This document shows positions 4,395 through 48,167 of a stretch of DNA of 48,167 nt, piece by piece. The stretch comes from a virus. Its lineage: Duplodnaviria > Heunggongvirae > Uroviricota > Caudoviricetes. A program made the translations under genes and the position numbers. The notes beneath the pieces were generated by a model that did not search any database, was not told where the DNA came from, and saw nothing but the letters and a program-made list of their open reading frames with translations. The stretch lies in the IMG/VR virus record IMGVR_UViG_2721755721_000005. One strand, written 5' to 3'. The stretch's first letter is position 1; each line of letters starts with the position of its first letter.

Positions 4395-4970
4395 TTAAGG
4401 ATTCATTAAGCAATGTCGCAACCACCAATAAATCCGCTTAAGAACATGAAAATTGATTACTGGTATAAAGCGCTTACAGTTGTTGGCGCTGCGTTGTTTG
4501 TCTTTAATGGAACGTCTTTTTTTGACAGATATCCCGTTGTTCCATTGGGTTTTTTGTCCTCCGGCATCTTTTTTATTGGTTTGGGGGAGTGGATTAATCA
4601 CCCTCTCAAAGTGAGATTTATTGGTCCTGGAGTTTGGACTCGTGGATATAATCGTTCTTCGTGCGCACTCGGTATCATCTTCGACATACTTGGTTGTTTC
4701 CTGATTGTTACAGGAGTCGTCAAGTTCTTCTGATGTAAAACCGCAAATGGGGCACGTAACGGGAATTTTGAAAAGCGTTTCTCCGGGTTCCAGAACAAAA
4801 TTTTCTGCGGTCTGATTTTGCTTCTCATATTTGTGCTCCGCGTCATTGTGAGAGCACATTCTTATTCTGAGTGCCTGTTTAAACTCACTGAAGCTGAGAG
4901 CTTCTTCGCCTTCGGCAAGGCCTTCGAAGTATTCTTCGTAAGCCTTTTCCATGATTGTGTCGAAATCCAT
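4395..4970 (-). CDS. Hypothetical protein; only the N-terminal ~79 aa (4734-4970) looks protein-like, the remainder overlaps the plus-strand membrane-protein gene
   Basis: ATG at 4970-4968 overlaps the stop of the upstream 51-aa gene (TGATATG). N-terminal part MDFDTIMEKAYEEYFEGLAEGEE...CPICGF has a CxxC motif; the part antisense to 4413-4733 is low-complexity N/K/R-rich. Confidence 0.3.
   Translation of the reverse strand: MDFDTIMEKAYEEYFEGLAEGEEALSFSEFKQALRIRMCSHNDAEHKYEKQNQTAENFVLEPGETLFKIPVTCPICGFTSEELDDSCNNQETTKYVEDDTECARRTIISTSPNSRTNKSHFERVINPLPQTNKKDAGGQKTQWNNGISVKKRRSIKDKQRSANNCKRFIPVINFHVLKRIYWWLRHCLMNP
4413..4733 (+). CDS. Small membrane protein, about 3 predicted TM helices (SieB-like position)
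   Basis: ATG preceded by AAGGA about 9 nt upstream. Hydrophobic segments ALTVVGAALFVF, GFLSSGIFFIGLG and ALGIIFDILGCFLIVTGVV. Plus-strand gene embedded among minus-strand early genes, as sieB is in Rac. Confidence 0.45.
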   Translation: MSQPPINPLKNMKIDYWYKALTVVGAALFVFNGTSFFDRYPVVPLGFLSSGIFFIGLGEWINHPLKVRFIGPGVWTRGYNRSSCALGIIFDILGCFLIVTGVVKFF

Positions 4971-4971
4971 A

Positions 4972-5127
4972 TCACTCACCTGAGTTTCTTTCCAGCCAGC
5001 GACGGGCACCATTTTCGGTTTTAAACGTTTTGCTTTTGGTATACGTCATCGCGGTGAACGTGCCGTCCTGGTTGGGGAACACGCCACATACCAGAGATTC
5101 GCTGTTGCCAAGATCGATAGTATCCAT
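4972..5127 (-). CDS. Small early protein, 51 aa (YdaF/YdaG-like)
   Basis: Internal ATG at 5127 with GAGG about 6 nt upstream gives MDTIDLGNSESLVCGVFPNQDGTFTAMTYTKSKTFKTENGARRWLERNSGE. First gene leftward of the repressor, as ydaF/ydaG are in Rac. Confidence 0.5.
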   Translation of the reverse strand: MDTIDLGNSESLVCGVFPNQDGTFTAMTYTKSKTFKTENGARRWLERNSGE

Positions 5128-22402: not shown

Positions 22403-23910
22403 TGGCATTTCTTGATGATGTGATTGGCGTTTTTTCACCAGGATGGAAAGCGGCAAGGCTGCGTTCCCGTGCGGTGATCCAGGCTTATGAGGCCGTAAAA
22501 ACGACGCGGACACACAAAGCCCGACGGGAGAACCGAACTGCCGACCAGTTAAGCCAGTACGGGGCCGTGTCGTTACGTGAGCAGGCTCGTTACCTTGATA
22601 ACAACCACGATCTGGTCATTGGTGTATTTGACAAGCTGGAAGAACGGGTGGTGGGGAAAAACGGGATTATTGTCGAGCCACATCCGGTATTACGCAATGG
22701 GGCCATTGCCCGTGATCTGGCAGCGGAGATACGTACCCGATGGAGTGAATGGTCTGTCAGTCCGGAGGTCACCGGGCAGTTTACCCGTCCGATGCTGGAA
22801 CGTCTGATGCTGCGTACCTGGCTGCGCGATGGTGAGGTGTTTGCCCAGATGGTTTCCGGGCGCATAAACAGCCTGACGCCTTCTGCCGGTGTTCATTTCT
22901 GGCTGGAGGCGCTCGAGCCGGACTTTATTCCCATGACCAGTGATGAGAGCAACAGGCTGAATCAGGGCGTGTTTGTTGATGACTGGGGGCGTCCCGAAAA
23001 ATATCTGGTGTATAAAAGCCGTCCCGTATCCGGGCGGCAGATGGAAACCAAAGAAGTGGATGCAGAGCGAATGCTGCATCTTAAATTTGTTCGCCGTCTG
23101 CACCAGATGCGCGGGACGTCTTTGTTGTCCGGTGTGCTGATCCGCCTCAGTGCTCTGAAAGAGTATGAAGATTCTGAGCTGACTGCAGCAAGGATCGCCG
23201 CTGCTCTGGGGATGTACATCCGGAAAGGCGACGGGCAGAGCTATGAACCGGATGGTAATGGCAGCAAGGAGAATGAACGCGAGCTTACCATTCAGCCAGG
23301 CATTATTTACGACGATCTGAAACCCGGCGAAGAAATCGGAATGGTGAAGTCGGATCGTCCCAATCCTAACCTTGAAACTTTTCGTAATGGTCAGTTGCGT
23401 GCCGTGGCGGCGGGCAGTCGTCTGAGTTTTTCCAGTACGGCACGCAACTATAACGGCACTTACAGCGCCCAGCGTCAGGAACTGGTTGAGTCTACTGATG
23501 GCTACCTGATCCTGCAGGACTGGTTTATTGGTGCCGTCACCCGCCCGATGTATCGTGCCTGGCTGAAACAGGCTGTGGCATCCGGTGTTATCAGGCTACC
23601 CCGTGATCTTGACCGTTCTTCACTGTATACCGCGGTGTATTCCGGACCGGTGATGCCGTGGATTGACCCTGTTAAGGAGGCTGAGGCCTGGAAAATCCAG
23701 ATTCGTGGTGGAGCGGCGACAGAATCAGACTGGGTACGTGCTGGTGGTCGTAATCCGGATGATGTCAAACGTCGGCGCAAGGCCGAAATTGATGAAAACC
23801 GCAAGCTGGATCTGGTATTTGATACCGATCCGGCCAGTGATAAAGGAGGCAGCAGTGCCGCAACGAAACGACAGGAGCCGCAGCACACCGACGACCAGTC
23901 CGAAGAATAA
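22402..23910 (+). CDS. Portal protein (gpB-like)
   Basis: ATG overlaps the W stop (ATGA); about 500 aa, directly after terminase and W. Confidence 0.85.
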   Translation: MAFLDDVIGVFSPGWKAARLRSRAVIQAYEAVKTTRTHKARRENRTADQLSQYGAVSLREQARYLDNNHDLVIGVFDKLEERVVGKNGIIVEPHPVLRNGAIARDLAAEIRTRWSEWSVSPEVTGQFTRPMLERLMLRTWLRDGEVFAQMVSGRINSLTPSAGVHFWLEALEPDFIPMTSDESNRLNQGVFVDDWGRPEKYLVYKSRPVSGRQMETKEVDAERMLHLKFVRRLHQMRGTSLLSGVLIRLSALKEYEDSELTAARIAAALGMYIRKGDGQSYEPDGNGSKENERELTIQPGIIYDDLKPGEEIGMVKSDRPNPNLETFRNGQLRAVAAGSRLSFSSTARNYNGTYSAQRQELVESTDGYLILQDWFIGAVTRPMYRAWLKQAVASGVIRLPRDLDRSSLYTAVYSGPVMPWIDPVKEAEAWKIQIRGGAATESDWVRAGGRNPDDVKRRRKAEIDENRKLDLVFDTDPASDKGGSSAATKRQEPQHTDDQSEE

Positions 23911-44200: not shown

Positions 44201-44569
44201 AGCGGGACCGCAAATAGTGCCGGTGCGCACCAACACAAGAGTTCCGGTGCATTTGGTGGCACGAACACGAGCATTTTCCCTAATGGTTATACCGCGATTT
44301 CAAATCTAAGCGCGGGGATTATGAGCACAACAAGCGGTAGTGGCCAGACTCGTAATGCAGGGAAGACATCATCAGATGGTGCTCATACCCACTCGCTGTC
44401 CGGCACTGCTGCAAGCGCAGGCGCACATGCACATACTGTCGGTATTGGTGCTCATACGCACTCCGTTGCGATTGGCTCACATGGACACACCATCACCGTT
44501 AACGCTGCTGGTAACGCGGAAAACACCGTCAAAAACATCGCATTTAACTATATTGTGAGGCTTGCATAA
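41291..44569 (+). CDS. stf: Side tail fibre protein Stf
   Basis: [26 protein letters not shown]..., a long Ala/Ser/Thr-rich repeat region, and C-terminal GAHTHS-type repeats ending [11 protein letters not shown]; lambda Stf-like. Confidence 0.85.
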
Positions 44570-45150
44570 TGGCATTCAGAATGAGTGAACAAGCACGGAC
44601 CATAAAAATTTATAATCTGCTGGCCGGAACTAATGAATTTATTGGTGAAGGTGACGCATATATTCCGCCTCATACAGGTCTGCCAGCAAACAGTACCGAT
44701 ATTGCACCACCAGATATTCCGGCAGGCTTCGTGGCTGTTTTCAACAGTGATGAGGCATCGTGGCATCTCGTTGAAGACCATCGGGGTAAAACGGTTTATG
44801 ACGTGGCTTCCGGCGACGCGTTATTTATTTCTGAACTCGGTCCGTTACCGGAAAATGTTACCTGGTTGTCGCCGGGAGGGGAATATCAGAAGTGGAACGG
44901 CACAGCCTGGGTGAAGGATACGGAAGCAGAAAAACTGTTCCGGATCCGGGAGGCAGAAGAAACAAAAAACAGCCTGATGCAGGTAGCCAGTGAGCATATT
45001 GCGCCACTTCAGGATGCTGTAGATCTGGAAATCGCAACGGAGGAAGAAATCTCGTTGCTGGAAGCCTGGAAGAAGTATCGGGTGTTGCTGAACCGTGTTA
45101 ATACAACAACTGCACCGGATATTGAATGGCCAGTAGCACCTATAGGGTAA
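44569..45150 (+). CDS. tfa: Tail fibre assembly protein Tfa
   Basis: [43 protein letters not shown]... lambda Tfa-like; ATG overlaps the stf stop. Confidence 0.9.
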
Positions 45151-45738
45151 ATTCGTAATGATTACCTAAATACGTTATTCTTTTGTTCAAAAAGTGATTT
45201 TGCTATAGGTAGGGAGTATGTTCTTGGATTAAGAATAAAAATCGCCATGAAAGAGCTTCATGGCGAGTACATAAACGTACAAAATATGATGAAAGTAGAG
45301 TGGCGTAAGCCACTATATTAAGATATGACAATAGCGAAGAAAAGTAAATAAAATTTTATGGGCGTTTAATTGTTAATTATAAAAACTAGAGTGCCCGATA
45401 TTGTTTATCTTGCTTTAAAATAATGTACTCAAACCAAATTTTTGAGCTAAAAGCTCAAATAATATAAATGCAATGATAATGTTTAATAAGACAATTAGCT
45501 TGCTTTGTATTTTCATTTCGGAATACTGTTAAGTAACTTTGATGACACTAACAATAGATCGGAATTTTCTTAGAGTCAATGGTCACTGTTTTTGCTTGCA
45601 AAGCAAATGTTTTTGGTGGTTATAAGTTTTCTTAATATAGTCACCTATGCAACTTGTTCCGTGTGGAGATCAAAGGTTAAAATTTAATGCGAAGATGGAA
45701 TTATAATATATTTTTTTATAATTAATTTAACCTTAACA

Positions 45739-45838
45739 TCGTTGCTGTCGGCATGGAAGAAATATCGGGTCTTGCTGATGTCGTGTTGGCACTTCCTTAG
45801 TGCGGTTATCGAATGGCCAGCTGTACCTGTGGGGTAAA
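45739..45838 (+). repeat. Degenerate duplicate of the tfa 3' end (remnant 1)
   Basis: TCGTTGCTG...GGAAGAAATATCGGGTCTTGCTGA...ATCGAATGGCCAGCTGTACCTGTGGGGTAA aligns with tfa 45050-45150 (..KKYRVLL...IEWP.VP.G*). Confidence 0.6.
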
Positions 45839-46502
45839 AACTTTATATGGGTGCTATTTTTATAATAGCTGGTAAAAACTGGCCGAACTGAAATTCACTG
45901 TTGATAAAAAAGATGTGTTTGAGTGTATGTCATTGTTTTCTTAATGGAATCCACTAGAATGCAGCGAATTTAAGAAGGTGGGTTTTTATTGGAATATAAA
46001 CTACAATAATGCTCAACTCGTTCGTAGAATTGTTTTTTCTTATTTTTGGGAATGCTAACCATTATATGCATTATGGGGGCGATACTTCCTGATAATTTAC
46101 ATGATGCATACATTGAAGCAATAAATTCAATATCATTGTCATCAAAGTTAAAGCTTTCTCCGTCCATTTCAATTCCTTATGTGTTTGGCACAACTGATGC
46201 TGTATCCCATGAGAATTTATGCAAGTTGTTATGTTTGATTTGATATTGCAATGATAATTGTAGCTAATTGTTTTCAATTGAGTGAAAGTTTATTTCGAGT
46301 GATTAAGTCGAAAAAAAAGATTTCTCACGGTTAGTAAGCGTATTAGGTTAGTATTCAGATATGAATGGTATTAATGACTAAATTTTCAATCATATATGGA
46401 TTTTTATGCTGATGAAGATGTTTTATTTGGCGATTCGTCAAGCATCTTCACTTAAGTAATCGTATATTTTAAGAGTGTAAAAGAGAAAGGGACAACGTTG
46501 CT

Positions 46503-46595
46503 CGCACTCTGGATTAAATATAGGGTGTTGTTAAACTGCGTTGATACATAATTGTACCGGATATTGAGTGGTCTGAAGTCCCAGTCATTAAGTAA
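46503..46595 (+). repeat. Degenerate duplicate of the tfa 3' end (remnant 2)
   Basis: CTGGATTAAATATAGGGTGTTGTTAAACTGCGTTGATACA...ACCGGATATTGAGTGG aligns with the same tfa 3' segment. Confidence 0.5.
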
Positions 46596-46883
46596 TCGTT
46601 TCGTGATATGCCGCAGAAACGTTGTATGCAATAACGTTCTGCGGTTGGCTGATGCACTTTCGAGAGTGTATTGAATAATTTCAAGCCGTTATTGTTTTTA
46701 CGCGTAACACCATGAAAAGACTGCTTATCTGTTGGGGTGTTTTTTGGGGCATATATGGGACAGAAATAGGCCACAGGTAGATAGTAAGATCGAACTCAGG
46801 ATGCTTTTGAAAAAATGTAACTATCTGAAAAAACCTAGAAAGCGCCAAGGAAACCACAGAATGAGAAAAAACATCTGTGAATT

Positions 46884-48167
46884 ATGGATTTCCAGTTATA
46901 TTCGCTCGGCGCAGCGTTAGTGTTTCATGAAATATTTTTTCCTGAATCATCAACGGCAATGGCGTTAATTTTGGCAATGGGAACCTACGGTGCAGGTTAT
47001 GTGGCGCGTATTGTCGGAGCATTTATTTTCGGCAAAATGGGCGACAGAATAGGGCGTAAAAAAGTGCTCTTTATTACCATCACCATGATGGGGATCTGTA
47101 CCACCTTAATTGGTGTGTTACCGACCTATGCACAGATTGGTGTTTTTGCCCCCATCTTGCTGGTGACGCTGCGTATTATTCAGGGGTTGGGTGCAGGTGC
47201 GGAAATTTCCGGTGCCGGTACGATGCTGGCGGAATATGCACCAAAAGGTAAGCGCGGAATTATCTCCTCATTTGTAGCTATGGGAACTAACTGCGGAACC
47301 TTGAGCGCAACGGCAATCTGGGCCTTTATGTTCTTCATTCTCAGTAAAGAGGAACTGCTGGCGTGGGGATGGCGTATACCGTTCCTGGCGAGCGTTGTCG
47401 TGATGGTCTTTGCTATCTGGTTACGTATGAATCTGAAAGAAAGCCCGGTCTTTGAGAAGGTTAATGACAGCAACCAACCCACAGCAAAACCTGCACCTGC
47501 TGGTAGCATGTTCCAGAGCAAATCCTTCTGGCTGGCAACAGGGCTGCGTTTTGGTCAGGCGGGTAACTCCGGGTTAATTCAGACTTTCCTTGCAGGCTAT
47601 TTAGTGCAGACGTTATTGTTTAACAAAGCAATTCCAACAGATGCATTGATGATTAGTTCGATTCTCGGCTTTATGACCATTCCGTTCCTTGGTTGGTTAT
47701 CCGATAAAATTGGTCGCCGGATCCCGTATATTATTATGAATACCTCCGCGATTGTGCTGGCATGGCCAATGCTTTCTATCATTGTAGATAAAAGCTATGC
47801 CCCGAGCACCATTATGGTTGCACTGATTGTGATTCATAACTGTGCGGTGCTGGGATTATTTGCTCTGGAAAACATTACCATGGCAGAAATGTTCGGCTGT
47901 AAAAACCGCTTTACCCGGATGGCCATTTCTAAAGAAATTGGTGGTCTTATCGCTTCCGGTTTTGGTCCTATCCTGGCGGGTATTTTCTGCACCATGACGG
48001 AATCCTGGTATCCGATCGCCATTATGATCATGGCATATTCAGTGATTGGTTTAATCTCTGCGCTGAAAATGCCAGAAGTGAAAGACCGTGATTTAAGTGC
48101 GCTGGAAGACGCTGCGGAAGATCAACCGCGTGTTGTAAGAGCTGTGCAACCTTCCAGAAGTCTGTAA
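46884..48167 (+). CDS. ydfJ: MFS transporter, metabolite:H+ symporter family (ShiA/ProP-like), apparently 5'-truncated host gene (ydfJ-like)
   Basis: 427-aa ORF starting at the position of the conserved WYDF motif (MDFQLYSLGAALVF...); the ~25 residues that normally precede it are missing and an in-frame stop lies 2 codons upstream. Symbol assigned from recalled K-12 synteny (ydfJ beside the Qin tail-fibre end); this is a recollection, not a search. Confidence 0.8.
   Translation: MDFQLYSLGAALVFHEIFFPESSTAMALILAMGTYGAGYVARIVGAFIFGKMGDRIGRKKVLFITITMMGICTTLIGVLPTYAQIGVFAPILLVTLRIIQGLGAGAEISGAGTMLAEYAPKGKRGIISSFVAMGTNCGTLSATAIWAFMFFILSKEELLAWGWRIPFLASVVVMVFAIWLRMNLKESPVFEKVNDSNQPTAKPAPAGSMFQSKSFWLATGLRFGQAGNSGLIQTFLAGYLVQTLLFNKAIPTDALMISSILGFMTIPFLGWLSDKIGRRIPYIIMNTSAIVLAWPMLSIIVDKSYAPSTIMVALIVIHNCAVLGLFALENITMAEMFGCKNRFTRMAISKEIGGLIASGFGPILAGIFCTMTESWYPIAIMIMAYSVIGLISALKMPEVKDRDLSALEDAAEDQPRVVRAVQPSRSL

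Follow-up and report, generated by a model that had tools for sequence, protein, structure and literature searches.

In the K-12 prophage DLP12, the tail-fibre assembly gene tfaD is followed by minus-strand cargo (ybcY'), by a tfa 3' fragment in direct orientation (tfaX, 186 nt, aligning to tfa nt 409 to 562) and then by AT-rich cargo with the regulator appY, and phage 2G7b has the same arrangement with the methyltransferase intact. Phage lambda carries its b region (ea47, ea31, and ea59), dispensable DNA of lower GC content that runs from the last late gene to attP, occurs in some close relatives and not in others, and is oriented opposite to the late operon, with promoter-like and terminator-like signals of its own. 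The comparable 'morons' of lambdoid phages were reportedly described by Juhala et al. in 2000 and by Hendrix and colleagues. Invertible segments of the Pin/Gin/Cin type (G in Mu, C in P1, P in e14, and pinQ in Qin) occupy the slot directly after stf–tfa and diversify the tail fibre. Tobe et al. are said to have reported, in 2006, exchangeable effector loci downstream of the tail-fibre genes in EHEC lambdoid prophages, that is, cargo cassettes between these genes and the prophage end that are shuffled among lambdoid prophages.

Here we analysed a 48,167-nt stretch of viral DNA (IMG/VR record IMGVR_UViG_2721755721_000005; the window) that holds one end of a lambda-like prophage of E. coli. Its arrangement resembles that of DLP12, but DLP12 has one decayed tfa end, or scar, whereas two are stacked here (scars A and B); the cargo here is a 65-aa orphan ORF and possibly a 33-aa peptide, and scars A and B, unlike tfaX with its protein annotation, are disrupted and carry no annotation. 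The likeness to the lambda b region extends to position, composition, patchy presence, and orientation, with signals that are predicted here, but two tiny units stand in place of the three lambda genes, with tfa scars at the module borders. The slot is that of the Pin/Gin/Cin segments, but there is no invertase, the repeats are direct, and the sampled complete genomes give no sign of switching. It is also the slot of the EHEC effector loci, but the window is without an effector gene. We conclude that the 1.7-kb AT-rich interval between tfa and the attachment site is ordinary accessory DNA and a record of past tail-fibre module swaps, and that it represents no new system.

RESULTS

Borders and composition of the prophage end

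The features of the region are as follows.

44569 to 45150, plus strand: tfa, intact tail-fibre assembly gene of 193 aa, TfaQ type (Pfam Caudo_TAP, E 2.8e-42; PHROG 105, E 3.7e-99)
45151 to 45734: block 1, AT-rich accessory DNA (GC 0.289), directly 3' of this tfa allele
45242 to 45266, minus strand: intrinsic-terminator-like hairpin from a terminator scan, 11-bp stem with 5 GC pairs, then TTTTTATTCT
45415 to 45516, minus strand: weak candidate, from the ORF list, for a 33-aa hydrophobic (possibly membrane) peptide, MKIQSKLIVLLNIIIAFILFELLAQKFGLSTLF
45735 (or 45739) to 45838, plus strand: scar A, decayed last ~100 nt of tfa, aligning to tfa nt 480 (or 484) to 582
45839 to 46483: block 2, AT-rich accessory DNA (GC 0.31) with one small gene, colinear at ~65 to 89% with a prophage at prfC (L004)
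45970 to 46167, minus strand: 65-aa orphan ORF, annotated in RefSeq as WP_000348576.1
46484 (or 46496) to 46595, plus strand: scar B, lambda-type tfa 3' end, aligning to tfa nt 473 (or 485) to 585
46599 to 46702: conserved hairpin element, a hairpin (46611 to 46644) plus ~60 nt, defined by alignment to lambda
46703 to 46877: attR-side P arm of the attachment site, of a type specific to phages that integrate in ydfJ, by comparison with Tritos and Qin
46878 to 46892: att core TGAATTATGGATTTC at the prophage/ydfJ junction, common to attL of strain 1943, attR of the window, and attP of Tritos
46884 to 48167, plus strand: ydfJ, host MFS transporter gene, 5'-truncated (RefSeq 'missing N-terminus'; the N-terminal part is at attL)

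The interval thus lies between the last late gene, tfa, and the att core, within the prophage; the earlier note had considered that it might be host DNA, and the comparison of attL, attR, and attP places it inside. Its AT-richness, also claimed there, is clear (GC 0.29 to 0.31 in the two blocks versus 0.50 in the rest of the prophage). The core occurs once in the window. The P arm is 92.5% identical to the attP of phage Tritos, where it adjoins the Tritos int gene, and 88.6% identical to the end of K-12 Qin, and homology to the prfC prophage ends at 46702, the exact boundary between hairpin element and P arm. The integration site is that of Qin, and about 2,800 of 5,426 genomes have Qin-type or window-type ends at ydfJ.

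Two decayed copies of the tfa 3' end

The resident tfa is 95.7% identical at the nucleotide level to K-12 tfaQ. It is the homology source for both scars. The local alignment score of scar A is 40 to 41, compared to 9.3±1.3 for shuffled sequence (z≈24), and that of scar B corresponds to z values of 25 to 31; 0 of 300 shuffles reached the score of either copy. Scar A matches tfa with a blastn E value of about 1e-13, and a repeat search gave 85% and 81% identity over blocks of 40 and 36 nt. The sequences flanking the scars score at z≤0.2, so the homology to tfa is restricted to its 3' end. The two decayed copies described in the earlier note, in the same orientation as the resident gene, are therefore genuine.

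Scar B is nearer to the tfa of phage lambda than to the resident tfa. In a search of 2.3 Gb of phage DNA, its region matched lambda 22457 to 22608 at 83.6% (E 1e-35), and scar B together with the hairpin element corresponds to the end of lambda tfa and the 50 nt downstream of it. For scar A, no intact tfa allele nearer than ~74 to 85% was present in 5,426 genomes. Neither scar can encode Tfa, as the first ~480 nt are absent; scar B has a 1-nt deletion and an in-frame premature TAA, and scar A has two frameshifts, which compensate each other relative to the Tfa frame. The longest exact identity is 10 to 12 nt at most between the scars and the live tfa and 7 nt between scars A and B. Because exact identity between the copies is at most 12 nt, it is unlikely that the scars now recombine with each other, and no deletion or swap variant was found among 60 evenly spaced rows sampled from 5,099 matching E. 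coli records.

Rfam family IS009 (RF02111) matches the resident tfa with 229 bits, its model spanning tfa nt 344 to 542, whereas the scars reach only 28.5 and 34.9 bits, below the gathering score of 117, and align only to the 3' portion of the model, which is unstructured. The family also falls within coding sequence in tfaD, tfaQ, and lambda tfa, and nothing points to an RNA function. IS009, on tfa and the scars, was the only Rfam family in or adjoining the interval when the region and four relatives were scanned. An Rfam alignment had hinted that scar B reaches back to 46362; this was rejected, since 46300 to 46494 scores below the shuffle mean. The short direct repeat that the earlier note had placed near 46450 and 46585 exists as the 12-mer TTAAGTAATCGT at 46452 and 46588, but as a junction microhomology or target duplication it was rejected. 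An exact 12-mer direct repeat occurs in 27% of dinucleotide shuffles of the region, a second one (TGCAATGATAAT) is present, the two sites are not identical in an 80%-diverged relative, and the second site is the stop-codon region of lambda-type tfa, so the repeat is at chance level.

Small genes in the AT-rich blocks

Block 1 is present in 831 of 5,426 complete E. coli genomes and block 2 in 591 genomes, with the arrangement seen here in 578. Block 1 lies directly behind an intact tfa in five other contexts that we inspected (loci L003 and L005 and the phages mEp332, ev099, and PhiR70_1; 93 to 96%) and behind a truncated tfa end in contigs L162 and L166. These contexts include other att sites and plaque-forming phages. 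The homology of block 1 to other contexts stops at 45696 to 45729, and the tfa homology of scar A begins at 45735.

The earlier note had found no convincing gene in the interval, a statement that holds only in part, given the 65-aa ORF in block 2. This ORF has an orthologue of equal length in the prfC prophage, with 78% nucleotide identity and a pN/pS of 0.36; AAGGA lies 6 nt ahead of its ATG, and there is a promoter-like site at 46286 to 46257. A homology search of a large database retrieved only near-identical E. coli sequences and no family. Judged from annotation and substitution pattern, the ORF is probably a real small gene. Between the window and the prfC prophage, the stretch from 46290 to 46598 is better conserved (89 to 90%) than the ORF itself (78%), which could reflect constraint or a more recent exchange.

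The 33-aa ORF in block 1 is intact in five diverged copies, where the L005 copy has five nucleotide changes that result in one amino acid change, and its DNA is identical in phage mEp332, although a tblastn search of phages gave no match for the peptide, probably owing to low-complexity masking. On the minus strand, a promoter-like TTGACT-17-TATTGT lies at 45579 to 45551, and a clear Shine-Dalgarno sequence is absent. The terminator at 45242 to 45266 is near-invariant in five aligned copies of block 1, with one loop and one stem-base substitution in L005. Nothing credible was found for six small ORFs, including these two, in Pfam or PHROGs. The promoter-like sites resemble the consensus, but their number is no higher than in shuffled sequence; there is one strong minus-strand terminator. 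Each AT-rich block probably carries one small minus-strand transcription unit, as predicted from these signals.

The hairpin element

In lambda the hairpin element comes after tfa, and elsewhere it comes after prophage dinI. It occurs in more than 120 IMG/VR contigs, with a dinI-like gene adjoining it in 56 contexts and a pin gene in several, and in L005 it is found on both sides of sitABCD cargo. The stem at 46611 to 46644 shows compensatory changes at at least three pairs. These were counted from per-sequence folds, as RNAalifold on 48 copies missed the hairpin because indels shift the stems out of register. Neither strand has a U-run after this stem in the window or in lambda. A minus-strand TTTTT is seen in many relatives, and counts of G·U (25) against A·C (27) revealed no strand preference. 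The scan of the region and four relatives assigned the element to no Rfam family, a full-text literature search for its sequence found no paper, and there was no similarity to the 3' flank of chromosomal dinI. Extra constraint on the element was rejected, as its pairwise identity of 91.5%, a value partly fixed by the search pattern, compares with 89.9% at dinI third-codon positions. An analogy to lambda sib/tI was also rejected, since the lambda homologue adjoins tfa, 5 kb from attP.

The scars in relatives

The unit consisting of scar A, block 2, scar B, and the hairpin element (45735 to 46702, ~970 bp) is colinear at ~80% in the prfC prophage, whose tfa fragment at position A is longer and less decayed and whose scar B is 90% identical to the copy here. 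By this comparison the stretch is one inherited unit, and its scars were not produced in the present prophage. Scar A, block 2, and scar B are also found in contigs with other downstream sequence (L158), and from its presence there and at prfC it follows that the unit moves inside phage genomes.

Similar scars lie behind unrelated tail-fibre modules in phages mEp460, Tritos, and 2G7b and in DLP12 (tfaD–ybcY–tfaX). Each independent left end is tied to one upstream module: nt 454 after the two-fibre module of Tritos, 2G7b, and L004, nt 440 after the long fibre of mEp460, and nt 409 for tfaX. In contigs L162 and L166, an mEp460-type side-fibre gene (99.3% and 91.4%) is joined to block 1, scar A, block 2, and scar B, and the join lies in a 122-nt overlap that corresponds to tfa nt 440 to 562. 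At the level of sequence comparison, these joins show tail-fibre modules exchanged by crossovers inside the conserved tfa 3' end.

The slot holds other cargo or none in relatives, which indicates that its content is dispensable. Two relatives that share the att site, K-12 Qin and phage Tritos, have pin and ydfK there, and in lambda and H201 the hairpin element follows tfa directly. The absence of pin noted earlier holds for the whole window, where the best tblastn match of K-12 PinQ, YdfK, and YnfT had E=1.9; it is probably explained by this lineage carrying different cargo where Qin and Tritos carry pin–ydfK. The accompanying statement that relatives have pin and an inverted alternative tfa is correct for pin in Qin, but Qin has no inverted alternative tfa.

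DISCUSSION

With a probability of roughly 0.75, the interval is the non-essential accessory end (b region or moron type) of a lambda-like prophage in ydfJ, built from stacked modules of which two boundaries are marked by scars. As part of this explanation, the scars have no present function and are passengers that move with their cargo. The oldest state would have been a lambda-like tfa–hairpin–att region, and the junction is indeed exactly as in lambda. The resident fibre genes would then have given way to a segment that ended in 'tfa(A)–block 2' and whose right end joined non-homologously ~113 nt before the resident tfa stop, leaving scar B; the longer and better preserved fragment at position A in the prfC prophage supports this step. 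Most recently, a segment with 'TfaQ-type tfa–block 1' at its end would have entered in the same way, joining ~100 nt before the tfa(A) stop and leaving scar A. The predicted intermediate, an intact tfa followed by block 2 and scar B, was not found in a non-exhaustive search of genomes. The conserved 3' end of functional tfa and of young scars would meanwhile serve as a zone of homologous crossover between fibre modules and downstream cargo stacks, as the comparison of L162 and L166 with mEp460 shows. No duplicate results from homologous crossover at the tfa end; the left junction of each scar must therefore be non-homologous. The repeated cassette replacement at the tfa 3' end that had been proposed is therefore only partly right: the conserved end is used for crossovers, but the scars are old, are inherited, and have non-homologous left joins. 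All left ends fall within tfa nt 409 to 484, a range narrower than expected from random breakage of the 3.5-kb fibre locus. We attribute this to deletion bias together with a detection limit; other possible reasons are a preference for certain breakpoints and illegitimate recombination aided by homology, with the tfa end as its anchor.

A broader idea, which we consider unlikely, is that the conserved end of tfa (~100 to 175 nt) and the hairpin element behind it (~100 nt) form a portable linker pair bracketing a 'cargo slot' in Escherichia lambdoid phages. If so, fibre modules would be swapped via the left linker and cargo (sitABCD, dinI, pin–ydfK, and small orphan genes) via the right one, and the stacked scars would be fossils of illegitimate insertions that homology had facilitated and that were anchored in the tfa end. 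In a weaker variant, the hairpin element might be an undescribed RNA derived from a dinI 3'UTR, by analogy with DinR of Klebsiella (PMC10907235). That selection retains the tfa fragments and the hairpin, either as homology for exchange or for a cis-acting or RNA function, is unlikely. The crossover in L162 and L166, the hairpin elements flanking sitABCD, the 90% conservation of scar B next to an ORF at 78%, the constant scar length of 100 to 175 nt, and the listing of the tfa region as IS009 would all fit it. Exact identities of 10 to 12 nt to the live tfa and of 7 nt between the scars are, however, below what homologous recombination needs, the scars carry frameshifts and stops, their IS009 matches (28 to 35 bits against 117) cover only the unstructured 3' part of what is tfa coding sequence, and deletion or swap variants are absent among the sampled complete genomes.

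The heavy use of ydfJ as an attachment site (~2,800 of 5,426 genomes) would suit a history in which tandem or neighbouring prophages collapsed by deletion and left the fibre ends of successive lysogens as scars, but the window has one att core, with none between the copies, and the unit also occurs at prfC and ahead of other downstream sequence, which makes such a collapse very improbable. Hardly tenable is the view that the copies remain from an invertible segment of the Pin/Gin type that once carried alternative fibre and tfa genes and has decayed, for although pinQ or pinR separates the fibre genes from the hairpin element in relatives at the same att site, and a pin gene adjoins this element in several IMG/VR contexts, both copies are direct and not inverted, which already contradicts it, no recombinase homologue is found anywhere in the window, the only inverted repeats bracketing the region are short and at chance level, and the scar–block–scar unit occurs without pin in the 8.6-kb stretch examined of the prfC prophage.

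In the preferred reading, an accessory prophage end with scar-marked module borders, the mosaicism is of the ordinary kind and of little importance by itself. The analysis gives exact borders for a common ydfJ prophage end that is present in ~10% of complete E. coli genomes and draws attention to two candidate small genes and to a conserved hairpin element that lacks annotation. It also calls for caution: IS009 matches or short 'tail fiber assembly protein' annotations that turn up at a prophage end usually reflect coding sequence or scars. The region is a clear example of how accessory DNA builds up at the ends of lambdoid prophages and how host-range (tail-fibre) modules are reshuffled.

Results

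The window is an E. coli prophage, lambda-like and ~48 kb long, and the interval studied lies in it, between tfa and the host transporter gene ydfJ. Over its last 1.8 kb the window is 100% identical to strain 1943; the RefSeq annotation of that strain has gpJ, lom, a side tail-fibre gene, tfaQ, a hypothetical protein of 65 aa and a ydfJ truncated at the 5' end. When attL (strain 1943), attR (window) and attP (phage Tritos) are compared, the 15-nt att core TGAATTATGGATTTC, present once in the window, falls at 46878-46892. Therefore, the entire interval 45150-46883 is prophage DNA, which eliminates the possibility, raised in the earlier note, that it is host DNA outside the prophage. The K-12 cryptic prophage Qin uses the same attachment site. 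A perfect 10-bp palindrome, TTACGCGTAA, occupies 46698-46707, exactly where homology to a prophage at prfC (strain STEFF_1, L004) ends and the ydfJ-specific P arm starts, and it may be a protein-binding site of the att arm. At the other end, positions 1-52, inside int, do not align to int of strain 1943 or Tritos, and positions 53-300 match at 99.6-100%; recombination may have had a breakpoint here, or the int alleles may differ.

Features between tfa and ydfJ
44569-45150, intact tfa (Caudo_TAP, E 2.8e-42)
45151-45734, block 1, GC 0.289
45266-45242, minus strand, predicted strong intrinsic terminator in block 1
45415-45516, minus strand, 33-aa hydrophobic ORF between this terminator and the promoter-like site
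45579-45551, promoter-like site in block 1
45735-45838, same orientation as tfa, copy A (scar A), aligning to tfa nt 480-582
45839-46483, block 2, GC 0.31
45970-46167, minus strand, 65-aa ORF, RefSeq annotated, AAGGA 6 nt upstream of ATG
46484-46595, same orientation as tfa, copy B (scar B), aligning to tfa nt 473-585
46599-46702, unannotated, conserved hairpin element of ~100 nt (hairpin 46611-46644 and a GGCTGG…CCAGCC segment)

Both copies reach local-alignment scores 24-31 standard deviations over shuffles, a level attained by 0 of 300. Just upstream of either copy, and in the rest of both blocks, tfa likeness is absent (scores at or below the shuffle mean). Two frameshifts that compensate each other interrupt copy A, and copy B has an in-frame stop and a 1-nt deletion. 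The GC content of the rest of the prophage is 0.50, and no homologue of PinQ, YdfK or YnfT was found anywhere in the whole window. The earlier description of an AT-rich stretch with two decayed tfa 3' ends in the same orientation and no pin invertase is thus borne out. The short direct repeat that it also reported, the 12-mer TTAAGTAATCGT, is indeed present twice, but we take it as chance, since 27% of dinucleotide shuffles of the interval, AT-rich as it is, also contain an exact 12-mer repeat, and the two sites are not alike in a diverged relative. Its second occurrence is the stop-codon region of lambda-type tfa.

That the interval has no convincing gene is not quite correct. The annotated 65-aa ORF keeps its exact length in the prfC prophage, with a pN/pS of 0.36; no family was found for it, and its relatives are in E. 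coli only. The 33-aa ORF is a weak candidate gene. It is intact in five copies, and in the prophage end beside sitABCD (L005) five nucleotide changes give one amino acid change, but it has no clear ribosome-binding site. It shares slot and orientation with the K-12 small protein YnfT (37 aa; 4891-5004 in the Qin region, L002), with no detectable sequence similarity.

The pieces have separate histories. Copy B and the next ~50 nt match lambda 22457-22608, the tfa end and its downstream flank (83.6%, E 1e-35); therefore, the junction of tfa stop and hairpin is old and conserved, and copy B represents the end of a lambda-type tfa. Positions 45735-46702, from copy A to the hairpin element, are colinear with the prfC prophage at ~80% identity (copy A, 66%; 65-aa ORF, 78%; around copy B, 89-90%; hairpin element, 83%), and identity drops to background exactly at 46702. 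Therefore, the two scars are an inherited unit, older than the window prophage. At position A the prfC prophage carries a longer tfa fragment (from tfa nt 454), much better kept (89%), directly after a different two-fibre module; an intact tfa formerly stood at position A.

Of 5,426 complete genomes, 831 carry block 1. In every other context inspected (prophage ends beside zinT and beside sitABCD; phages mEp332, ev099 and PhiR70_1) it comes directly after an intact tfa of the window's type, and homology to these contexts stops at 45696-45729, a few nucleotides short of copy A. In mEp332 and ev099 an AraC-family regulator and transposase fragments lie between block 1 and int (4130-6600 in L009/L010), an arrangement like that in K-12 DLP12, where appY lies downstream of tfaX. 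In one IMG/VR contig (L155) unrelated sequence stands ahead of block 1–scar A–block 2–scar B, with the junction just ~8 nt short of the tfa stop; the prophage is probably defective and has probably lost a large segment.

The hairpin element recurs in the Qin region (~4440-4580 in L002), the prfC prophage (4757-4865 in L004), on both sides of sitABCD (4595-4681 and 8410-8486 in L005) and at loci L015-L134. It is widespread: an anchor pattern outside the hairpin detects it in >120 IMG/VR contigs and, among genomes, in Escherichia/Shigella only. Its left neighbours vary (tfa ends of several types, pin, ydfK, other DNA); on its right, 56 contexts have a dinI-like gene on the minus strand whose end is 8-10 nt from the element, the usual position of the element. 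The stem shows compensatory changes at at least three pairs. Minus-strand T-runs are found in many variants but in neither the window nor the lambda version. Hairpin stability has no strand bias. Conservation of the core does not exceed that of dinI third-codon positions. The element shows no relation to the 3' flank of chromosomal dinI and belongs to no Rfam family. We read the element as the 3' end and terminator of a leftward dinI/int transcription unit, at its convergent junction with the late operon, retained in the window without dinI. An unsupported but possible alternative is a DinR-like RNA (PMC10907235) from a dinI 3'UTR.

Rfam RF02111 (IS009) gives full-score matches inside the intact coding sequences of this tfa, K-12 tfaD and tfaQ, and lambda tfa (window 44912-45110; L012 3857-4055; L002 6345-6543; L006 1317-1515) and looks like part of the tfa protein-coding sequence, not like an RNA gene. 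On the minus strand of another locus (L038, 6987-7166), CssrB ('Chromosome-encoded Shigella sRNA B') has a match of 229 bits, ~0.75 kb upstream of a tfa 3' end and apparently inside the tail-fibre/tfa gene region; it may be another family built on phage coding sequence.

Discussion

The scars are tfa ends inherited with downstream cargo, and the conserved end of tfa is a zone of crossover. Such scars, without a long ORF, occur behind several unrelated upstream modules, starting at tfa nt 454 after the Tritos/2G7b/L004 two-fibre module, nt 440 after the mEp460 long side-fibre gene and nt 409 in K-12 DLP12 (tfaD–ybcY'–tfaX). Each left end is tied to a single module, a pattern that fits a single ancestral non-homologous join, then inherited with the module. 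Most informative are two IMG/VR contigs (L162 and L166). Both carry the mEp460-type side tail-fibre gene (99.3% and 91.4%), including the scar from nt 440, and then run into the stack of the window, from its tfa end through block 1, scar A and block 2 to scar B. Overlap of the two homologies covers tfa nt 440-562, about 150 nt before block 1, and marks a homologous crossover within the conserved end of tfa, giving three stacked scars.

Homologous recombination alone cannot leave a duplicate. Each scar would have arisen as the resident genes gave way to an incoming segment made up of new fibre genes, a new tfa and some of the DNA downstream. On the left, the crossover would lie in conserved upstream sequence; on the right, the join would be illegitimate, inside the resident tfa, with the useless remainder trimmed by later deletion. 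All scar left ends fall within tfa nt 409-484. Our reading of this clustering, though not a full explanation, is deletion bias together with the detection limit; alternatively, illegitimate recombination may have been facilitated by homology, with the tfa end as its anchor. The longest exact identity is at most 10-12 nt between scars and live tfa and at most 7 nt between scars. Among 60 evenly spaced rows from 5,099 matching records, coverage fell into classes of 100, 95, 41, 36, 21, 14 and 12%, none of them at the 60-75% that repeat-mediated deletions would give. The earlier note described the region correctly, and its model of repeated tail-fibre cassette replacement at the tfa 3' end survives in part: L162 and L166 support the crossover zone, but the scars were inherited and predate this prophage, as L004 indicates.

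The interval has none of the marks of a Pin/Gin invertible switch. In position, composition and dispensability it agrees with lambdoid accessory (moron, b-region) DNA, and its closest described analogue is tfaD–ybcY–tfaX of DLP12. About 10% of complete E. coli genomes have the arrangement, which is ordinary lambdoid mosaicism, a well-resolved fresh example and not a new system.
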